From the NCBI GenBank assembly GCA_022824265.1, contig JAJEAG010000059.1, positions 8,736 to 72,735 on the forward strand: a DNA stretch of 64,000 bases, given 5' to 3'. The notes under the pieces are model-generated. The model ran no database searches. It saw nothing but the letters and a program-made list of their open reading frames with translations, and was not told where the DNA came from. Position numbers and translations under genes: made by a program. The DNA comes from Candidatus Poribacteria bacterium (lineage in GTDB: Bacteria > Poribacteria > WGA-4E > WGA-3G). This document shows positions 1,146 to 29,641 of this stretch, piece after piece; positions within the stretch are counted from its first letter, which is position 1, and the number at the start of each line of letters is the position of its first letter.

Positions 1146-2519
1146 ATGGCAACTTTGACGCAAACTGAAAACCGCATTAGACCCCTCTATATTGACGGAT
1201 ACACCCATCAACTGAGTTACGCACCTGGCGAAGAGATTGCCTTTCATGTCTCAACCAGTGCTGGGAACCACTCTCTTGAGATTGCACGCATCGGTGCAGA
1301 ACGTGAAGTAGTATTCAATGAATCTGGACTACCCGGGAAGGCACAACCTGTTCCCGTAAATGCTTCATCTCACGGATGTGGGTGGGAAGCTACCTATACG
1401 TTTGAAGTGCCAGATACATGGCAGAGCGGATATTATGAAGGTATACTCCGCGCATCAGATGGTGGTGGTGACCCCATCTATAGGAACCATCGCACAGTAG
1501 AAAGTTCTTTACACTTTATTGTTCGTCCAGCAGAACCGGGAGCTAAAACTCCAATGCTATTTCAACTTTCCACCAACACATATAACGCTTATACCAACTG
1601 GGGTGGTTTTAGTCTTTATGGGTATCACGGACAGAATGGAATGCAGGGACGACGTGTTTCATTTGACCGACCTATTGGGAGCCAGTATAGGACGTGGGAG
1701 TTACCTTTTGTTGTCTGGGCAGAACAGAATGGATATACACTTGATTATGCTGCAAATAGTGACCTTGAATTCCGTCCTGAGATGTTGAAAAATTACAAAC
1801 TGGTATTGAGCCTTGGGCACGACGAATACTGGTCTACACCAATGCGCGACAATCTTGAGAAATTCATTGCGGATGGAGGAAATGTCGCCTTCTTTAGTGG
1901 TAATGCTGTGTGTTGGCAAGTGCGTTCTGAAGACGATGGACGCGCCCTCGTCTGTTGGAAGCAAAGCTACAATCAAGACCCTGTTTACAAAACAGATGAT
2001 CACAGTACATTGAGCACTTTGTGGAGCCACCATCTGGTGAAACGTCCTGAAAACGAACTGACCGGTGTCGGTTTCCTTCAAGGTGGTTATCATTTGAGTC
2101 ACGGTCAATTTATGGATGGAGATGGTGCATATACGGCACACCGTCCAGAACATTGGGTGTTTGAAGGCACTAACTTGTCAAGGGATGAAAAGTTCGGTGG
2201 GCAAAATACCGTAGTCGGCTACGAATGCGATGGATGTGAATTTACACTTGAAGATGGCTTACCTGTACCAACTTATAAAGATGGCACTCCTGAAGGATTT
2301 ACAATTCTCGCCACGGCACCAGTCCGTTGGCATCCAGATGATTGCGAATGGTATGAACATTGGGAGCAAGGATATACAGGTGCTGCAACGATGGGTATCT
2401 ACACAAAAGGTGGCACTGTCTTTACTGCTGCTACGACAGACTGGTCACACGGCTTGGCAGGTGGGGATGCTGTTGTGGAACAGATTACGCATAATGTTTT
2501 GCGGCGGCTTTCGGCATGA
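1146..2519 (+). CDS. hypothetical protein, tentatively an N,N-dimethylformamidase-large-subunit-like / class-I glutamine-amidotransferase-like domain protein
   Basis: 457-aa ORF with SD (aaaggaggaaacatcATG). Motifs LFQLSTNTYNAYTNWGG and LGHDEYWS are recalled from DMFase-beta-like family members. Family assignment is from memory only. Confidence 0.45.
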   Translation: MATLTQTENRIRPLYIDGYTHQLSYAPGEEIAFHVSTSAGNHSLEIARIGAEREVVFNESGLPGKAQPVPVNASSHGCGWEATYTFEVPDTWQSGYYEGILRASDGGGDPIYRNHRTVESSLHFIVRPAEPGAKTPMLFQLSTNTYNAYTNWGGFSLYGYHGQNGMQGRRVSFDRPIGSQYRTWELPFVVWAEQNGYTLDYAANSDLEFRPEMLKNYKLVLSLGHDEYWSTPMRDNLEKFIADGGNVAFFSGNAVCWQVRSEDDGRALVCWKQSYNQDPVYKTDDHSTLSTLWSHHLVKRPENELTGVGFLQGGYHLSHGQFMDGDGAYTAHRPEHWVFEGTNLSRDEKFGGQNTVVGYECDGCEFTLEDGLPVPTYKDGTPEGFTILATAPVRWHPDDCEWYEHWEQGYTGAATMGIYTKGGTVFTAATTDWSHGLAGGDAVVEQITHNVLRRLSA

Positions 2520-2603
2520 AGTAATTTCTATATAACATCTAATTCTATGACCTAACAAAACGTTAAACCACCAAATTTAACATTTCCCTACATGGAGTTT
2601 TGA

Positions 2604-4052
2604 ATGGCTAATGAACGTCCGAATATCGTATTAATCACCACAGACCAACAACGCGGCGACTGTTTGGGTATTGACCCCGACGGTCCTGACTGTCTACAGA
2701 CACCGAATCTTGACTGGATCGGTCGCAGTGGAACACATTTTCGACGCGGATACGCGGAATGCCCGAGTTGTATTCCTGCCCGACGCGGTCTAATGACAGG
2801 CACTGCACCTGCAGCCAACGGAATGGTTGGATATACAGGAGCACAATGGAACCCACCACATACGCTGGCAGGTGAATTGTCCGCAGCTGGTTATCAAACC
2901 GAGATGATCGGCAAACTACATCTATCTCCACCACGCAGACGATACGGCTTTGATCACGTCCAGTTGTCCGATGCTACTCATGGAACTGCCAATAACGACT
3001 ACGTCGAATGGTTACAACAATACCATTGTCGTAATGATTACGATCCAGGGATGGCACACGGTGTCTCTGCTAACGGGTGGGTTGGACGACCACATCATCT
3101 TCCCGAAGAACAGATGCACACCTTCTGGTGTGTCGACCGCGCCCTTAAATTCCTCCGAAAACGCGATCCATCAACTCCCTTTTTCCTTAACATCTCCTTT
3201 ATAGACCCGCACCCACCGTTGACACCACCCGCACACTATTACCAACGTTACATACAGCGGGATCTTCCACCACCCGTTATTGGTGACTGGTCATTAAACC
3301 TTGACATTGAACAGAAAGGGCAGAATCCAAATGCGTGGAAGATTAACCTTGACAAATACGATATGCAATGTGCGCGGGCTGCCTATTACGGAATGATTAA
3401 TTTTATTGACGATCAGATAGGTCGGTTGCTTCAAAATGCTGGTAGTTTGAATGACTGTCTCGTTATTTTTACTTCCGACCACGGTGAAATGCTTGGTGAC
3501 CATAACATGTACCGCAAAACCTTCCCTTATGAAGCCTCTGCACGAGTGCCGTTTCTTATACGAGCACCTCGGAGATGGGGTTATCCACAAGAAACCGTCT
3601 GTAATAGTCCTGTCGGTTTGCAGGACATCATGCCCACTATACTTGATGCTGCAAATATTGAGATTCCAAGCACCTGTACTGGTAAAAGTCTATTACCTAT
3701 CATGCGAGGTGATGCTGATCGGATAAGAGAATGCCTACATGGGGAACACTCCGGTTGCTACGATAACAAACATGGCAACCACTATGTGACTGATGGACAA
3801 CACAAGTACATCTGGTATTCCCAAACGGGTAGAGAACATCTCTTCAATTTGCAAGAGGATCCACACGAAACAACAGACTTAGCACTTCAGAGCGACGCTG
3901 AAACTCTACTAACTCCGTGGAGGAATCGTCTGATTGAGTTCCTCCGCGACCGTCCTGAAGGTTTTACGGATGGAAAGAACCTCATTGCGGGGCAACCCCA
4001 TAAAGCTTTGTTGCCTGACTATGATGCCAATGCAACATATCCTTATTTATGA
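2604..4052 (+). CDS. sulfatase (formylglycine-dependent arylsulfatase family)
   Basis: N-terminal PNIVLITTDQQRGD plus the CIPARRGLMTG signature (C-x-P-x-R) in the 482-aa ORF. Confidence 0.9.
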   Translation: MANERPNIVLITTDQQRGDCLGIDPDGPDCLQTPNLDWIGRSGTHFRRGYAECPSCIPARRGLMTGTAPAANGMVGYTGAQWNPPHTLAGELSAAGYQTEMIGKLHLSPPRRRYGFDHVQLSDATHGTANNDYVEWLQQYHCRNDYDPGMAHGVSANGWVGRPHHLPEEQMHTFWCVDRALKFLRKRDPSTPFFLNISFIDPHPPLTPPAHYYQRYIQRDLPPPVIGDWSLNLDIEQKGQNPNAWKINLDKYDMQCARAAYYGMINFIDDQIGRLLQNAGSLNDCLVIFTSDHGEMLGDHNMYRKTFPYEASARVPFLIRAPRRWGYPQETVCNSPVGLQDIMPTILDAANIEIPSTCTGKSLLPIMRGDADRIRECLHGEHSGCYDNKHGNHYVTDGQHKYIWYSQTGREHLFNLQEDPHETTDLALQSDAETLLTPWRNRLIEFLRDRPEGFTDGKNLIAGQPHKALLPDYDANATYPYL

Positions 4053-4070
4053 AAATCCGTTGCGGGTATA

Positions 4071-5522
4071 ATGTTAGTTACTGTTGCGTATTCGGTGATG
4101 ACGTGCTATCCTATTTATATGGAAACTGCAAAACGAAATCCTTCAGCAATGCGCACTCCCGGTGCTGTACTCTTAATCTCCTGCTATGAACTTGGACACC
4201 GACCAATAGGACTAACGCGTCCTCTTCGCGCACTTGAAAGTGCAGGATTTTCACCCGATACTATTGACATTGCAGTCGAAACCTTGGATACAGAAAAGGT
4301 CAGCCGTGCAGAGTTTATTGGTATCTCTGTACCGATGCATACTGCCTTACGACTCGGTGTTCACCTGCTCCAACGAATTCGTGAACTCAACCCAGATGTC
4401 CCAATATGCATGTATGGACTTTACGCGGGACTCAATGCCGACTACCTACTCTCACACGGGGTTGACTATTGCATCAGTGGTGAAGTGTCTACGCAACTTG
4501 TTGAGTTAGTACAATCTCTTGCAAAGAAAAAACACACGAAGGCACAGAAACATCCAACAATCACTATCGGAAAACTTCCTGCTTTAGAAAAATACGCACA
4601 ATTTGAGGATAAAGATGAAGTGCGAACCGTCGGCTATACAGAGACAACGCATGGATGCAAGCATCTTTGCACGCATTGCCCTATACCTCCTGTCTATAAC
4701 GGAAAATTTTTTCCTGTGCAGCGTGATACTGTGTTAGACGAAATTCAGAAACAGGTAGCAGAAGGGGCGACACACATAACATTCGGTGACCCTGATTTCC
4801 TCAACGGTCCAATGCACGGACTTCGCATTCTCCGCGCAATGCATGAGATCTGCCCCGACCTAACATTTGACTTTACAACAAAGATTGAGCATATTCTTAA
4901 ACATAGAAAACACTTTGCTGAATTTGCTGGACTCGGATGCCGATTTATCATTTCTGCGGTAGAATCGCTAAGTGACAAGGCGTTAACTATTTTGGAGAAA
5001 CACCACACTCGCGCAGATGTTGAAACTGCACTTGAGATTGTTCACGGTGCTGGAATCGCACTAAGACCAACATGGGTACCGTTCACTCCGTGGACAACCT
5101 TAGACGACTATCTTGAAATCCTTGAATTCGTCAACACACACCGACTCGTTTACCATGTTGATCTTGTACAGTACGCGGTTCGGTTGCTCATTCCACCCGG
5201 TTCATATCTGCTAAACCGACCCGAAACAAAAGCACTTTCATTCACATTTGATCAAACTGTCTTTAGTTATATGTGGTCACACTCCGATCCACGTATGGAT
5301 GAACTTCACAAAACGGTTAATGCCCTTGTAGAAAAAGACGCACGAACCGATGTTGATACAAAGGACACCTTTTATCGGATATGGGAACTTGCCGCTGATA
5401 TGAAAGGACAACCTATACCGAAACGAAGGAGTGTATTACATTTACCCGCGCCACGTATTACTGAAGCATGGTTTTGCTGAGCGGAACCTACCGAAGGGCA
5501 GTTTGCCCCAATACATGTTTAG
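4071..5522 (+). CDS. B12-binding-domain radical SAM protein, CUAEP-tail family; predicted selenoprotein (in-frame TGA 5478-5480 read as Sec; real stop TAG 5520-5522)
   Basis: CX3CX2C (GCKHLCTHC) is a radical-SAM cluster motif. The N-terminal domain resembles class-B B12-binding (..VDYCISGEVSTQLVEL..). The annotated ORF ends ...EAWFC-TGA, but the next codons GCG GAA CCT give C-U-A-E-P, then TEGQFAPIHV-TAG. The start codon is uncertain (ATG at 4071, 4098 or 4119). Confidence 0.7.
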
Positions 5523-5546
5523 AATTTACTTCACAAAGGAGAAAGT

Positions 5547-6233
5547 ATGTCAAAACAATTACAAGAACTACTTGACTTAGAAACTGCACCTATTGCAGTA
5601 ACATTCCACGAGGCACAACCTGATGGTGTTTCCCGTGTGGAAAAAGTTGAAGCATCAGGTTGCACCTATTGGAAACGCGCATCAGAAGGAAAAACCTTTT
5701 ACACAGAAGCATCTGACCATTACAACTGTCCAATAGGGTGTTATACTCATAATGTCGAACTACCCGATGAACAAATGAAGGAGTTGGAAAACACTCTTGG
5801 ATTAATGGGTGAACTCGGTTATATTAGTATGGATGAAGTCCCCGGTATCCCTCGTCAAGAAAATACGTTTCAAAACGCAGTCTACTCCCCATTAGCAGAC
5901 ACACAAGACATACCGGATGTTGTTATTATCTCTGGCACGCCAAAGCAGATGATGCTCTTAGTTGAAGCCGCGACCGCTGCAGGAATAGAGATAGAAAACG
6001 GCATCATGGGAAGACCAACCTGTGCTGTTATACCTGCTGTTATTCAGTCTGATGGAGGCGCAAGTAGTCTGGGATGCATTGGTAACCGAGTTTATACTGC
6101 GCTCTCTGACGATGATTTCTACTTAGCTTTCCCAGGCAAACATATTGATGCTATTATAGATAAGTTAGAGACAATTGTGAATGCAAACCATGCATTAGCG
6201 GAATATCATCAGCAACGGCAAGAGGAAATCTGA
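5547..6233 (+). CDS. DUF169 family protein
   Basis: 228-aa ORF with a strong SD (aaaggagaaagtATG). Cys-containing motifs (ASGCTYW, NCPIGCY, PTCAVIP, LGCIGNR) are typical of DUF169/COG2043. Its stop overlaps the next gene's start (TGAATG). Confidence 0.7.
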   Translation: MSKQLQELLDLETAPIAVTFHEAQPDGVSRVEKVEASGCTYWKRASEGKTFYTEASDHYNCPIGCYTHNVELPDEQMKELENTLGLMGELGYISMDEVPGIPRQENTFQNAVYSPLADTQDIPDVVIISGTPKQMMLLVEAATAAGIEIENGIMGRPTCAVIPAVIQSDGGASSLGCIGNRVYTALSDDDFYLAFPGKHIDAIIDKLETIVNANHALAEYHQQRQEEI

Positions 6234-7025
6234 ATGAAAAGCGTTGCTGTGATTACCGGTGCCGCAAGTGGCATCGGACGCGGTATGGCGGAACGGTTCG
6301 CTGCAGAAGGAATGGCAGTTGTCATCGCGGATATTGAGGAACAACCATTAGCCAAACTTGAGGCAGACCTACGGACTAAAGGCGCAACAGTCCTCGCTGT
6401 CCGAACAGATGTCTCAAACGCAGCCGATGTTGAAAACCTTGCTGTACAAACGGTTGATACTTATGGTGCGGTGCATATCCTGTGCAACAACGCAGGTGTA
6501 GTCTGTAGCCGTCCAATCTGGGAACATACCCCCGCCGATTGGGAATGGGTATTAGGTGTCAACCTCTGGGGTGTAATTCACGGTATCCGTGCATTTGTCC
6601 CACGCATGCTAAAGCAAGAAACTGTATGTCATATTGTGAACACTGCTTCTATTCTCGGTTTAGTCCGAGGTCCAGGTGAAGGCATCTATAAAGTCAGCAA
6701 ACACGGTGTCGTTACGCTTTCGGAAACCCTTGCCGACGAGTTAGCACAAAAAGATTCACAAATTCAGGTGCATGTATTGTGTCCCGGTTGGGTGCGCACA
6801 GGTATACTCAATTCCTCTCGTAATCGTCCAGATGTTGAAGCGCACCATAATCGGCAACATATCACCGAATCCCAGAATGTTCGCGCTGAGATGGAAGCAG
6901 GAATCTCTCCTGCCGAAGTGGCAGATCATGTCTACAACGCAATTCAGACAGGTACATTCTATATTCACACACACCCTGAACATAAAGCGTGGATCCGCGC
7001 CCGTATGGAAGGTATTCTCGGTTAG
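6234..7025 (+). CDS. SDR family oxidoreductase (short-chain dehydrogenase/reductase)
   Basis: TGAASGIGRG Rossmann motif, NNAG, and the catalytic Y-x3-K (YKVSKHG). Confidence 0.9.
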   Translation: MKSVAVITGAASGIGRGMAERFAAEGMAVVIADIEEQPLAKLEADLRTKGATVLAVRTDVSNAADVENLAVQTVDTYGAVHILCNNAGVVCSRPIWEHTPADWEWVLGVNLWGVIHGIRAFVPRMLKQETVCHIVNTASILGLVRGPGEGIYKVSKHGVVTLSETLADELAQKDSQIQVHVLCPGWVRTGILNSSRNRPDVEAHHNRQHITESQNVRAEMEAGISPAEVADHVYNAIQTGTFYIHTHPEHKAWIRARMEGILG

Positions 7026-7086
7026 TTTATGTTATTCTACCTGTTTTATATATGGTGAACTTTGTAAATAAAGGGACTTATGTTCT

Positions 7087-7151
7087 GTAGGAGCGATCTC
7101 CGAATCGCGACGATACTCATTGATAGTCGGGAATCGGAGTTCCCAACCTAC
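7087..7151. repeat. Inverted pair of REP-like palindromic elements with a 5' GTAG head (gtaggagcgatctccgaatcgcgac / rc tgtaggttgggaactccgattcccgac)
   Basis: Seen directly. The first unit is identical to 54781-54805. The second unit on the opposite strand has the same GTAGG+stem-loop architecture. Confidence 0.6.
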
Positions 7152-7299
7152 ATCTCTATATGTTCCATTAATTCTAAAGTTCACCATAAACGAATCTAAA
7201 CAGATTTATTTCAGGAGAAACTAATCCTGGTAATCCTATAATCCTGAAAATCTTGGTTCTGACAAAACAACCATACATATCTATATCTCTGCATTGCCG

Positions 7300-7329
7300 T
7301 TGACAAAATCAACTTTTTCATTGTATACT
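7300..7329 (+). promoter_or_regulatory. candidate sigma-70 promoter (TTGACA-18 nt-TATACT) for the 7514 lipoprotein operon
   Basis: ttgacaaaatcaactttttcattgtatact. Same -10 context (tgtatact) as the tRNA promoter at 53362. Confidence 0.45.
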
Positions 7330-7513
7330 ATTTTTAATAGAGTATTAACTTTTGATCTCAAGGAACCTTATATTCTCATCTTACCAAGTGAGAATATAAA
7401 AGCCGAAGATATACCAAGGGTTGAAACGCGGATAATTATTAAACCGCGCTAACTGGCGAACGAAACCTTTTTATCAACCCATGATCGTTAATAATTCAAG
7501 AGGAGAGATTTAC

Positions 7514-8016: not shown

Positions 8017-8874
8017 ATGCCTATACACACACAAGACTATCGACATTGGGAAGGGACGCTAAACCCTCAAAAATATACACGGTGGTGGGTTATCGCAAAA
8101 GCTGAATTGAAACTACTCGCAAAACGCAAAATCGTCCGACTAATTATTGCGATTCCACCGGTTATTTACATCATAGTGCACGCAGTAATGATCTACTTAT
8201 ACAACCTGTTTGAAGCGGTTGATTTTCCCTTTAAGGTAGACTCAGCGTTTTTTCAGCACTTTATTTTTAGAATTGAGTTTATATCAGGACTTTTTGTTGC
8301 CATAATTGCAATTTTTGGGGGTGCAGGGTTAATTGCCAACGATCTAAAGAGCAACGCACTTTCCCTTTACCTATCTAAACCAATTTCATGGGTAGATTAC
8401 CTCATCGGAAAATTTGCTGCAGTCGGTATATTGCTTACATGCATAACGTTGTTACCCGGGATGTTGCTATTTCTGGAACAACTGTTGTTATCCGATTTTA
8501 ACTTCTTTAAAGAGAATTTCTGGATAGTTTTCTCCATTATCGGCTATTCAATAGTCGTCACCACTATCACGAGCCTACTGATGTTGGTCTTCTCATCACT
8601 AACAACAAATTCTCGGTATGCGACCATCGGTTTTTGTGCAGTTTGGTTTGGATTACCTGTCCTCCACGCCATCCTCATAATAACTCTTCGAACGAGCAAA
8701 GTTGCTTTAGTCTCTATTTGGGCAAACTATGATCGTCTTGGTTCAGTCCTTTTCGCTTCAGATAATAGCTACACCACACACTGGTCTATCACGCTCCTGA
8801 TATTAAGTGCGTTGACTGTCGGCTGTATCCTCGTTCTTAGACATCGGATACGTGCTGTAGAGATCGTCAAATAG
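8017..8874 (+). CDS. polytopic membrane protein, ABC-2-type permease-like
   Basis: N-terminal RWWVIAKAELKLL, as in ABC-2 permeases, with about 6 hydrophobic helices. There is a 2-nt gap to the upstream lipoprotein gene. No ATPase gene is adjacent. Confidence 0.5.
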   Translation: MPIHTQDYRHWEGTLNPQKYTRWWVIAKAELKLLAKRKIVRLIIAIPPVIYIIVHAVMIYLYNLFEAVDFPFKVDSAFFQHFIFRIEFISGLFVAIIAIFGGAGLIANDLKSNALSLYLSKPISWVDYLIGKFAAVGILLTCITLLPGMLLFLEQLLLSDFNFFKENFWIVFSIIGYSIVVTTITSLLMLVFSSLTTNSRYATIGFCAVWFGLPVLHAILIITLRTSKVALVSIWANYDRLGSVLFASDNSYTTHWSITLLILSALTVGCILVLRHRIRAVEIVK

Positions 8875-14406: not shown

Positions 14407-15744
14407 TTACTGCAACAATACTGGCACATCTTTCATAAAATCATCGGTCTCTGTCTGCCATCTATTTAGTTCAGTAGCCAACGATTTGACGCGTTCCGCG
14501 TGTTCCGGTTGTTCAGCAAGGTTGTTTGTTTCCCAAGGGTCATTCTCTAAATCAAACAATTGAAGGTAATTGGTGCCTTTACCAGTCTCTTCAGAGACAT
14601 AATAGCGGATAAGTTTCCATTTGCCATCACTCACAGTGCGATGAATGTCTTTATACGCAGCAAAAACCGTATCGCGAACCTTGTCAACACAACCTTCCAT
14701 CAGCGGAACTAAGCTGCAGCCTTCCACTGTATCCGGAATGTCAACGTTGGTAAGGTCACACACGGTGGGAAATACGTCGTAGAGATAGGTCAATGCATCG
14801 ACTGTCTGCCCTTCGGGGATTCCCGGTCCAGCAAATATTGACGGCACACGAATGCTGTGGTTATACAAATTCTGTTTTCCAAGTAACCCGTGTTGTCCAA
14901 CTGCGAGTCCGTGGTCTGCAGTGTAGATTACAATAGTGTTATCAAGATGCCCTTTTGCCTCTAATGTCTGTAGGACGCGACCCATTTCGGCATCCTGACT
15001 GGTAATCATACCGTAATAATCAGCAATATGTTGCTGGACAATCTCTGGAGTGCGTGGGAACGGTGCTAATACTTCATCTCGAATCCGCATCTCTCCATTG
15101 TCAAATGGGTGTTCGGCAACGAAGTTCTCCGGAACGGGAACATCTTCAGGTTTATACATCGTCGCATATTCACCTGGTGGAGTTCTTGGATCGTGCGGAG
15201 AAGTAAAGGAGAGATATACAAAAAATGGATCCGTTTGGTCATAGTTTTCTATAAAATCCACGGCGGAGTCTGTAAACAGTGTCGTAGAGAATTTATCTCC
15301 GATATACCTGTTATCTTTCGGATAAGCACCTGACGGATCATAATCGAAAATGGGCACTTTATATTGATTACCCATGCCACCGAAGAAAATAGTAGCACCA
15401 TCGTCAAAACTATTGGTAAACGTCTGTCTGTCATTGTGCCACTTACCGCTAAAAAATGTACTATATCCTGCATCACGCATGACCTGTGGCCAAACAGCCA
15501 AATCTCGGTTAAGTTGGTTGCCACCACTGCGGAATAGGTTAGCACTGGTAAGAACAGCAGCACGACTGGGTACACAGACAGCACCAACGAGAGAACCCAT
15601 GATATGAGTTTCTCGGAACGTCGTTCCACGTGCCATGAGTGAGTCCATCGTCGGTGTTTTCACCGTCGAGTCCCCATAACCTGCTATGGCATCCCAACGG
15701 TGGTCATCGGCAATCATAAAGAGTATATTAGGTTGTGAAGGCAT
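14407..15744 (-). CDS. sulfatase (formylglycine-dependent)
   Basis: PNILFMIADDHRWD and the CVPSRAAVLTS C-x-P-S-R signature. Confidence 0.9.
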   Translation of the reverse strand: MPSQPNILFMIADDHRWDAIAGYGDSTVKTPTMDSLMARGTTFRETHIMGSLVGAVCVPSRAAVLTSANLFRSGGNQLNRDLAVWPQVMRDAGYSTFFSGKWHNDRQTFTNSFDDGATIFFGGMGNQYKVPIFDYDPSGAYPKDNRYIGDKFSTTLFTDSAVDFIENYDQTDPFFVYLSFTSPHDPRTPPGEYATMYKPEDVPVPENFVAEHPFDNGEMRIRDEVLAPFPRTPEIVQQHIADYYGMITSQDAEMGRVLQTLEAKGHLDNTIVIYTADHGLAVGQHGLLGKQNLYNHSIRVPSIFAGPGIPEGQTVDALTYLYDVFPTVCDLTNVDIPDTVEGCSLVPLMEGCVDKVRDTVFAAYKDIHRTVSDGKWKLIRYYVSEETGKGTNYLQLFDLENDPWETNNLAEQPEHAERVKSLATELNRWQTETDDFMKDVPVLLQ

Positions 15745-28163: not shown

Positions 28164-29564
28164 TCATTTCAATAATGACCAATCAGGTTCGTCTTCAGGA
28201 TCGCCAAGAGGTCCGTGGGCGTTACGGACGATGCGACGTTGTGCGTCATACCAATCCGTATAGCTTGTGGCAGGTTGGAGTTTATCGTTACGAGCATCCA
28301 TCAGGTTTAGGAGGGTGGTTTCCATCTCATCTGCTAAAGATTGTGCTTCAGAGTTGTCAATCAGGTTGTTCATCTGCAGCGGATCTGATCCAATGTCGTG
28401 CAGCATCCGTTTACCGTTAAGCCATCGTGCATAGCTATGGGTTTTTGTGCGAACACCTCGCCATTCGTTACCATCAACAAGGTAATCGTAGGTTGACCCA
28501 AAGTTCATCGTCAGAACAGCATCTTGTTCATAAGCATCCGTTTCACCACGCCAAGATGCAGACAAATCGTAACCTTCCACTGTGCGAGGTGTCGGAATTC
28601 CGCATAAACCGCAGAGAGAGGGAAATAGGTCTACAGGTGATGTGAGGGTGTCACAGGTTCCATTATCTTCAAAAACACCGGGTAACCGCATGATGAGTGG
28701 TACTTTGATCGATTCCTCGTAAGGTTCTCGCTTTGCCCAGAAATTGAGATTCTGTGCACCACCTTGCGTACCGTGATCAGAACCAAAGACGAGTAATGTG
28801 TTATCCACACGACCCGTTTTTTCAAGATATGCCATCAACTCTCCGAGCATATCGTCTACTGCTAAAATCATAGCAAGATAGTGTCTGTAAGCATTTAACG
28901 AACGTTCTCGTTGGTTGTCTGAAACGTTCTCAGGTAGATGGAGTTCAGCGGGTAGGCGTTCATAGTATTCTTGTGGTGCATATTCGTAGGGTGTCCCGTG
29001 TGCTTGATGTGGAGAGATAAACAGACAGAACGGGGTATCCTTACCTATATCATCCATAAATTGAAATGCGTATCGGTTGAGTGCATCTGTCTCGTATCCT
29101 TCCCATCTTTCGTTCCGCCAATTGTCAAGGTTTACAGTACCATTGAAATAGTCGGTGTGGAAGTTGTAGCCACGCCAATGTTGAAATCCGAGACGGTCAC
29201 GACCTTCAGGGACATAATCGCGTCCACCGATTTCTGGGAATGAACCTGTGTGGAGATGCCATTTACCGACCCATGCTGTGCGATAACCGTTACGATTGAA
29301 AACGTCACCGAGTCCAATTTCATCGTGACGTGTCTTTACGAAATTTATGAGATGACCGGTTGTCTGCGGGTGTCGTCCCGTGAGTAGCATGGAACGGTAG
29401 GGGGTACAGACAGGTGCAGTAGCAATTGCGTTTGAGAAAACGGTGCCTTCTTGTGCGAGTCTATCTATATGTGGTGTTTCAATCTGCTTTTCACCGTATA
29501 CTGGTAATGAGCAGGCACGAATTTGATCTGATAGGAGATATACGATGTTCGGTTTGTTTGTCAT
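28164..29564 (-). CDS. sulfatase (formylglycine-dependent)
   Basis: MTNKPNIVYLLSDQ and the CTPYRSMLLTGRHP C-x-P-x-R signature. The start may instead be the upstream ATG at 29603. Confidence 0.85.
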   Translation of the reverse strand: MTNKPNIVYLLSDQIRACSLPVYGEKQIETPHIDRLAQEGTVFSNAIATAPVCTPYRSMLLTGRHPQTTGHLINFVKTRHDEIGLGDVFNRNGYRTAWVGKWHLHTGSFPEIGGRDYVPEGRDRLGFQHWRGYNFHTDYFNGTVNLDNWRNERWEGYETDALNRYAFQFMDDIGKDTPFCLFISPHQAHGTPYEYAPQEYYERLPAELHLPENVSDNQRERSLNAYRHYLAMILAVDDMLGELMAYLEKTGRVDNTLLVFGSDHGTQGGAQNLNFWAKREPYEESIKVPLIMRLPGVFEDNGTCDTLTSPVDLFPSLCGLCGIPTPRTVEGYDLSASWRGETDAYEQDAVLTMNFGSTYDYLVDGNEWRGVRTKTHSYARWLNGKRMLHDIGSDPLQMNNLIDNSEAQSLADEMETTLLNLMDARNDKLQPATSYTDWYDAQRRIVRNAHGPLGDPEDEPDWSLLK

Positions 29565-29641
29565 GATTATTAGATTGTAATGTATGGGATTTAAAATGCC
29601 CATCCCATGAGAAATAACTATTTGTCATAGTTGATCAAATT

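Follow-up and report, generated by a model that had tools for sequence, protein, structure and literature searches.

We have analysed a 64,000-nucleotide stretch of poribacterial DNA (positions 8,736 to 72,735 of contig JAJEAG010000059.1, hereafter the window), in which a radical S-adenosylmethionine (SAM) gene on the forward strand is cut in the database at an in-frame TGA (5478-5480). According to the sequence comparisons, the UGA of the transcript is very probably read as selenocysteine (Sec, U) and not as a terminator. The gene was assigned to a curated family of radical SAM (seleno)proteins, its TGA is aligned with Sec or Cys codons in the related genes, the tail behind the codon is under purifying selection, and a covarying hairpin accompanies the codon only where it is UGA. 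Such a recoding had been predicted in an earlier note made from the letters of this DNA and their open reading frames (ORFs).

Gene model and family assignment

The ORF at 4071-5480 (+), which is also the database gene call (469 aa, cut at the Sec codon), ends with ...ITEAWF-C and is followed by TGA. The earlier note had described this ORF of 469 aa with its stop directly after the Cys codon TGC, and checking of the sequence upheld its extent. The annotated start at 4071, however, did not stand: it is probably wrong and the real start would be the ATG at 4119, since in poribacterial relatives the frame is closed by stops ahead of the corresponding ATG. Past the TGA the reading frame continues, as the note had it, with GCG GAA CCT (A-E-P) and TEGQFAPIHV up to the true stop codon TAG at 5520-5522 (+). 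The gene call is 14 codons short, because read-through (Sec and 13 codons) adds 14 codons before the TAG. The full recoded coding sequence (CDS) is thus found at 4119-5522 (+): 467 codons from Met at 4119 to Cys-Sec-AEPTEGQFAPIHV, plus the TAG. Its product has 467 residues and ends with ...TEAWF-C-U-AEPTEGQFAPIHV, where the Cys-Sec dyad is encoded at 5475-5480 (+) by TGC (5475-5477, the invariant Cys) and TGA (5478-5480), and the translated tail at 5481-5519 (+).

The radical SAM family with a CUAEP/CCAEP tail, which the note had named, does exist. It is NCBIfam NF040546, "CUAEP/CCAEP-tail radical SAM (seleno)protein", an equivalog model with a curated cutoff of 500 bits. The truncated protein scores 595.6 bits over profile positions 1-457 of 468; with the read-through tail included, where U was written as C for the scoring, the score rises to 616.3 bits (+20.7) and the match extends over positions 1-467 of 468. 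Therefore the curated profile expects the read-through tail. The CUAEP motif of the family is found in the window as TGC TGA GCG GAA CCT at 5475-5489, and by all sequence criteria tested the gene is a member of NF040546. In the literature the family was called uncharacterised, and its CU motif noted as rare, in one sentence of a preprint (Haft 2022, bioRxiv 10.1101/2022.07.06.499078). No further literature mention of it was found, and the accession is absent from the 2026 review table of prokaryotic selenoproteins.

The TGA codon in related genes

All of the 120 nearest database proteins, the exact match included, stop at ...TEAWFC. The alignment with more distant homologues, which the earlier note had suggested as a check, came out in favour of recoding: in a diverse set made of the representatives of 50%-identity clusters (85 with intact C-terminus), 46 proteins go on with W[FY]C-C-AEP or similar, and 39 stop exactly at W[FY]C. 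Among the 46 continuing representatives AEP is found in 37, the others having AAP, SEP and similar, and T..Q is usually next.

The same was seen on the DNA level in 80 species-level genomes of GTDB and 80 metagenome contigs. In the species genomes 65 distinct tails had TGA as the codon following W-F-C and 13 had TGC/TGT; on the metagenome contigs the numbers were 65 and 9. Combined, about 150 related loci from at least ten phyla gave 130 distinct tails with TGA and 22 with TGC/TGT, and AEPT..Q was found in frame after both the Sec and the Cys codons across the sampled loci. The phyla sampled include Poribacteria, Planctomycetota, Methylomirabilota/Rokubacteria, Acidobacteriota, Gemmatimonadota, Chloroflexota, Nitrospirota and Myxococcota among others. 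All poribacterial loci are of the TGA type. The gene is also carried by chromosome-level poribacterial assemblies such as OZ242381.1 and OX638351.1, and natural Cys-type homologues are found, for example, in Nitrospira and Ca. Manganitrophus. A sequencing error or a pseudogene was considered and ruled out, as the TGA is kept by every poribacterial locus and recurs in many further phyla.

An apparent tandem pair of radical SAM genes was observed in a Chloroflexia locus (L070, about 6001-7413 and the next gene but one), with a 129-aa ORF between them; the first copy is of the Cys type.

Selection on the tail

In 12 poribacterial tail sequences the variable sites within codons +1 to +10 are distributed as 1, 2 and 9 over the first, second and third codon positions, a pattern from which purifying selection on the translated tail protein follows. 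The choice of synonymous codons in these tails is unusual as well. GGG, the rarest Gly codon in the genes of the window (12%), is used by 11 of the 12 tails, and GCA, the commonest Ala codon (47%), is used by none of them, GCC or GCT standing for Ala in 11 of the 12. These choices are explained by the pairing of the hairpin described below, which requires those bases.

A double change was noticed in one locus (L012), where tail codons +6 and +9 (GGA ... GTC) carry the compensatory substitutions G21A and C29U (numbered as in the next section). Pair 21-29 of the hairpin is thereby preserved as A-U instead of G-C, the price being Val in place of Ala in the tail.

The probable SECIS hairpin

The hairpin GGGCA-GUU-UGCCC was found where the earlier note had placed it, 16 nt past the TGA: it lies at 5496-5508 (+), with the stem 5496-5500/5504-5508 and the loop G-U-U at 5501-5503. 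Its first base is the 16th nucleotide after the TGA, its loop starts 20 nt after the UGA, and the region 5478-5520 folds at -9.9 kcal/mol. It would form the upper hairpin of a selenocysteine insertion sequence (SECIS). The significance of this hairpin comes from the comparison with the other loci and not from the window copy itself.

In a numbering that starts at the U of UGA, the Sec-type genes share a stem formed by nucleotides 16-22 with 28-34 and a loop A23-G24-U25-U26-N27; 13 sequences of the species-genome sample are offset by one position and have an AGUU loop of 4 nt. C22, G24 and G28 show little or no variation among the Sec forms, whereas in the Cys forms G28 and U25 are not conserved and the A-G-U-U loop is confined to the Sec forms. 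The folding energies of nucleotides 13-38 agree with this: in the species genomes the mean is -10.5 kcal/mol for Sec and -2.8 kcal/mol for Cys forms (Mann-Whitney p = 1.8e-8), and in the independent metagenome sample -12.0 versus -3.7.

The stem was also found to covary. In 48 main-register sequences 82% of the cells are paired, compared with 31-55% in slid controls. The double-change cells number 64, where shuffles give 22 and none of 500 reaches 64. Pair 21-29 occurs as CG (22), GC (14), UA (11) and AU (1) and is never unpaired; pair 20-30 occurs as GC (27), AU (15), GU (5) and CG (1). Since a codon has its second base at position 29, the RNA structure dictates here the amino acid (Ala, Gly, Asp or Val). 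The suggestion of the earlier note that the hairpin is part of a SECIS is therefore sustained by its covariation and by its restriction to TGA forms, with the window copy at the weak end of the family range.

In five loci (L021, L038, L055, L057, L079) the peptide past AEP diverges (e.g. AEPLRTSLV, AEPLEDPSGP) and a strong hairpin is kept, which in L021 is shifted by one nucleotide. Judged from these sequences, the RNA constraint would here outlast the peptide constraint.

Published rules for bacterial SECIS elements demand a loop of 3-9 nt, at least 4 bp, a spacing of 16-37 nt and an energy of -7.5 kcal/mol or lower (PMC13188914), together with a G at loop position 1 or 2, after which G or U is usual (Zhang and Gladyshev, per PMC13188914). 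The earlier note had called for a check of this kind, and the loop GUU, the 5 bp stem and the 20 nt spacing of the window element conform to the rules; its energy is marginal, as discussed below. Similarly to the SECIS of the E. coli fdhF type, the element is a hairpin within the CDS just 3' of the UGA, with a small apical loop that begins with G and then U. It differs from bacterial SECIS elements in its very short stem (5 bp) and its 3-nt loop, no conserved lower stem or bulged U was found, and the Rfam scan of the window matched the hairpin to no SECIS family. A conserved lower stem was looked for by eye in Poribacteria and rejected: AACCU/AGGUU pairs were seen in four loci, and not in the window, in L003 or in others.

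Probable recoding of the UGA codon and alternative explanations

On the basis of the established decoding of Sec in bacteria, the following course can be proposed. SelB with Sec-tRNA(Sec) would be recruited by the hairpin within the CDS (stem 5496-5500/5504-5508, loop G-U-U) and would insert selenocysteine at the UGA 5478-5480, 20 nt upstream of the hairpin loop, after which translation would run 13 further codons to the TAG at 5520 and yield the 467-residue protein. That selenium is actually inserted in the source organism is what we infer from these comparisons.

Several points weigh against this reading. Taken alone, the hairpin of the window folds at -7.2 kcal/mol (z = -1.7, 11 of 200 shuffles folding as well), just short of the -7.5 kcal/mol of the published rule, and it forms only 5 of the 7 family pairs. 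A covariance model built from 36 non-poribacterial Sec-tail hairpins only and run on both strands of the window has its top match at 5490-5515, over the hairpin, at 15.6 bits and with only the inner pairs formed, which corresponds to E of about 0.1. The 48 sequences of the covariation analysis had been pre-selected for three or more main-register pairs, although 61 of 65 Sec tails passed this filter and no Cys tail has 3 contiguous main-register pairs. Finally, selA, selB, selD and tRNA-Sec were not found within the 64-kb window: ARAGORN and Rfam gave four ordinary tRNAs and no tRNA-Sec, NCBIfam models for SelA, SelB and SelD matched none of the ten window ORFs of suitable length that were scanned, and tblastn with E. 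coli SelA, SelB and SelD (approximate queries) gave no match in the window. Among 60 related loci, none has a tRNA-Sec adjoining its radical SAM gene.

Among the alternatives, inefficient recoding survives best, and it is possible, although rather unlikely, that a truncated product ending at the Cys and a full-length Sec product are both made, in a ratio set by the selenium supply; the truncated form would then have its own role or be inactive. Competition of SelB with release factor 2 at the UGA is established for bacterial selenoproteins, the poribacterial hairpins are short (5-6 bp as compared with 7 bp in the other phyla), and a variant of the related enzyme ArsL without its tail still cleaves SAM and makes no product, all of which speaks for two products. 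The tail, on the other hand, is strongly conserved, which speaks for the full-length form as the product under selection.

It is very improbable that the UGA is recoded with another residue, either Cys delivered over the SelB/SECIS route by a SelC*-type tRNA (tRNA-ReC) or Trp/Cys in near-cognate read-through. Such tRNA-ReC species, which decode UGA with a SECIS, have been described in the literature, and Cys is tolerated at the site: about 15% of the sampled loci have it there, as do 46 of the 85 diverse representative proteins. Nevertheless, the maintenance of UGA together with the SECIS across more than 100 genomes and many phyla is the pattern of a true selenoprotein, NCBIfam curates the family as a selenoprotein, and selA and selD, needed only for making Sec, are listed in poribacterial genomes.

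Least probable of all is that the TGA is a genuine stop after ...AWFC and that the conservation downstream reflects an RNA element, such as a hairpin that regulates or stabilises the transcript, or else a signal between the genes that serves the following DUF169 gene: every gene caller stops at the TGA, the hairpin is a feature of the RNA, and the five loci named above keep it while their peptide past AEP diverges, but the TGC/TGT homologues run on with the same AEPT..Q peptide, the substitutions in the tail gather at third codon positions, the curated profile spans the tail with a gain of 20.7 bits, and the hairpin is gone exactly where the codon is Cys, as expected of a SECIS and not of a general regulatory hairpin.

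Selenocysteine insertion is also in line with what has been published on the phylum. COG1921 (SelA), COG3276 (SelB) and COG0709 (SelD) are listed for Poribacteria bin70, bin44 and WGA-3G, bin70 having 40% G+C and 5.5 Mb (Slaby et al. 2017, Table S4), and Sec-type group 4 hydrogenases have been reported from Poribacteria (2026 study). These data support the Sec trait in the phylum indirectly and are not a proof for the source genome. The window itself has 42% G+C, the closest proteins (75-88% identity) carry the name Candidatus Poribacteria wherever they are named, and the closest GTDB loci are poribacterial metagenome-assembled genomes.

TGA ends 9 of the 41 long ORFs of the window, the radical SAM gene included. 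It is therefore otherwise a stop codon in the source genome, and a reassigned genetic code is ruled out. A scan of the window for other in-frame TGAs flanked by long open frames found none credible besides that of the radical SAM gene.

In two Blastocatellia loci a selD gene (TIGR00476, 357 and 329 bits) was observed, at 3188-4285 (-) of L023 and at 1957-2919 (-) of L056, divergent from and adjoining a pair of ATP-grasp and radical SAM genes; the radical SAM gene of L023 is of the Cys type. The linkage to selD was rejected as an argument, being too rare (2 of 164 loci, both Blastocatellia).

The result for the window is a very probable recoding event in a family which NCBIfam has already catalogued, and the recoding itself is not new. 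We did not find described in the literature the SECIS consensus of the family and its loss in the Cys forms, the predominance of the Sec form across phyla, the neighbourhood pattern presented below, or the uniform truncation of the gene calls in the 120 closest database entries. The truncation is of practical importance: the exact match and its 119 closest homologues lose a residue that is probably catalytic, and structural or biochemical work started from these entries would use a dead or altered enzyme. Members of the family are present in at least ten bacterial phyla, of which many are represented mainly by uncultured lineages, and about 85% of the sampled loci are of the Sec type. The SECIS consensus (stem 16-22/28-34, loop A-G-U-U-N, with C22, G24 and G28 invariant) offers a simple marker for mending the gene calls.

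Protein architecture and relation to ArsL

The radical SAM core domain lies at 4641-5060 (+; Pfam PF04055, 48 bits) and contains the CX3CX2C [4Fe-4S] motif CKHLCTHC at 4656-4679 (+). C180, C184 and C187 are invariant across the family alignment, and the only invariant cysteines of the CUAEP family are these three cluster ligands and the Cys preceding the Sec. In front of the core, at 4173-4508 (+), there is an N-terminal Rossmann-like, B12-binding-like domain, whose match to Pfam PF02310 (B12-binding; E = 1.9e-7) is below threshold (31.4 bits, gathering threshold 32.1). Thus from the architecture which the earlier note had proposed the CX3CX2C motif was recovered, while the B12-binding domain has a sub-threshold match and a likeness of fold.

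In the AlphaFold model (predicted local distance difference test score, pLDDT, 93.8; predicted template modelling score, pTM, 0.91) the protein is predicted as a Rossmann-like N-terminal domain followed by a radical SAM barrel, which resembles the cobalamin-type radical SAM enzymes. The closest solved folds are OxsB, TsrM, AprD4, MgmA and MiaB; these relatives came from fold comparison only, as a search by sequence gave no relative of solved structure at E <= 0.001. The model is as close to AprD4 and MiaB, to our knowledge not cobalamin enzymes, as to OxsB and TsrM, and cobalamin binding is thus only putative.

Among characterised proteins the nearest is ArsL. The window protein has 35% identity (E = 1e-80, residues 11-397) with an ArsL-type enzyme bearing the RCCLKC tail. 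The two share the N-terminal domain and the CX3CX2C motif over about 400 residues, and vicinal chalcogen residues (CC or CU) are a feature of the C-terminal tail in both families. ArsL, which acts in arsinothricin biosynthesis, cleaves SAM to a 3-amino-3-carboxypropyl radical that attacks arsenite; the cysteines of its C-terminal CCxxC tail bind the As(III) substrate, and removal of the tail abolishes product formation and leaves SAM cleavage intact. ArsL, to which the CUAEP family is a sister, belongs to the only two canonical radical SAM enzymes for which a departure from 5'-deoxyadenosyl chemistry has been reported. By this analogy, the Cys-Sec dyad is most likely the site holding the soft metal(loid) substrate of an ArsL-like enzyme. 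Alternatively, it might cycle as a redox-active selenenylsulfide beside the [4Fe-4S]/SAM site. Our confidence in any specific biochemical role is low.

The analogy with the ArsL tail is one of homology only, and there are further points against it. The ArsL model NF040542 is the second-best NCBIfam match of the window protein, with 312 bits below its cutoff of 450, and the tail is C-U-AEP and not RCCLKC, so that the protein is a paralogue of ArsL and not a member of NF040542. The tail motif of ArsL sits past a linker that is longer by about 30 residues, the window has no arsM or ars operon context, and ArsL is not known to be a selenoprotein.

Cys and Sec also stand side by side close to a C-terminus in the SaoL, SaoC, HgcA and MerT-type CU proteins discussed by Haft, whose folds are unrelated, and in the GCUG motif of mammalian thioredoxin reductase, which likewise has an unrelated fold. 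CU motifs have been argued to mark heavy-metal or organometallic chemistry (Haft 2022, bioRxiv 10.1101/2022.07.06.499078). A Cys-Sec tail on an ArsL-like enzyme is a lead to new organometal(loid) or selenium-dependent radical chemistry.

Gene neighbourhood and possible function

Downstream of the radical SAM gene there is a DUF169 gene at 5547-6233 (+; Pfam PF02596, 100 bits), with the Shine-Dalgarno sequence AAGGAG at 5536-5541 (+), and next to it a short-chain dehydrogenase/reductase (SDR) gene at 6234-7025 (+) recognised by NCBIfam and Pfam SDR models. In the poribacterial loci examined DUF169 stands downstream of the radical SAM gene, followed by the SDR gene in 10 loci, with insertions sometimes found between the members of this trio. 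A scan found no terminator-like site between the radical SAM and DUF169 genes, and the poribacterial radical SAM gene appears to be co-transcribed with the other two. Upstream, a promoter-like motif TTGCGT-17 nt-TATCCT at 4084-4112 (+) ends 6 nt short of the ATG at 4119. It is common to most poribacterial loci and could serve as a promoter; a consensus promoter scan of the window did not flag it, as it is below threshold. The mRNA may be leaderless.

In a wider sample of 163 loci, where neighbours were counted within 3 genes of the radical SAM gene, an Nfu/NifU-like Fe-S carrier was present in 37 loci, an ATP-grasp enzyme with an L-amino-acid-ligase C-terminal domain in 32, DUF169 in 26, and a YggX-type Fe(II)-trafficking protein and a formyltransferase in 17 each. 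Blastocatellia loci were seen to carry an ATG22/major facilitator superfamily (MFS) transporter too, and in L025 a SAM methyltransferase stands between the ligase and the radical SAM gene.

In Nitrospina, a DUF169 gene has been reported next to hgcA-like genes, where MerR and a UbiE-type methyltransferase are present too (bioRxiv 10.1101/648329), a context which hints at a link to metal or organometallic chemistry. The DUF169 protein of the window (5547-6233) was observed to contain several N-terminal cysteines (GCTYW, NCPIGC).

From the homology with ArsL, the counts of neighbours, selD next to the cluster in two Blastocatellia loci and DUF169 near hgcA-like genes a joint reading can be put forward, which we regard as speculative and unlikely. 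As non-canonical radical SAM enzymes of the ArsL kind, CUAEP enzymes might attach a carbon radical, for instance the 3-amino-3-carboxypropyl group derived from SAM, to a soft metalloid or chalcogen bound by the Cys-Sec dyad and so give a new organo-element amino acid; from it the ATP-grasp enzyme that adjoins in many phyla and resembles L-amino-acid ligases, in some phyla with an MFS exporter, might make a peptide antimetabolite for export; and the Nfu, YggX and DUF169 neighbours might service the cluster or the element.

Elsewhere in the window three genes of the arylsulfatase family were noted, at 2604-4052, 14407-15744 and 28164-29603, the first of them above the cutoff of NF010322, and a gene with a DMFA2_C domain at 1146-2519. 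Arylsulfatase and DMFA2_C genes together presumably belong to the typical poribacterial gene set.

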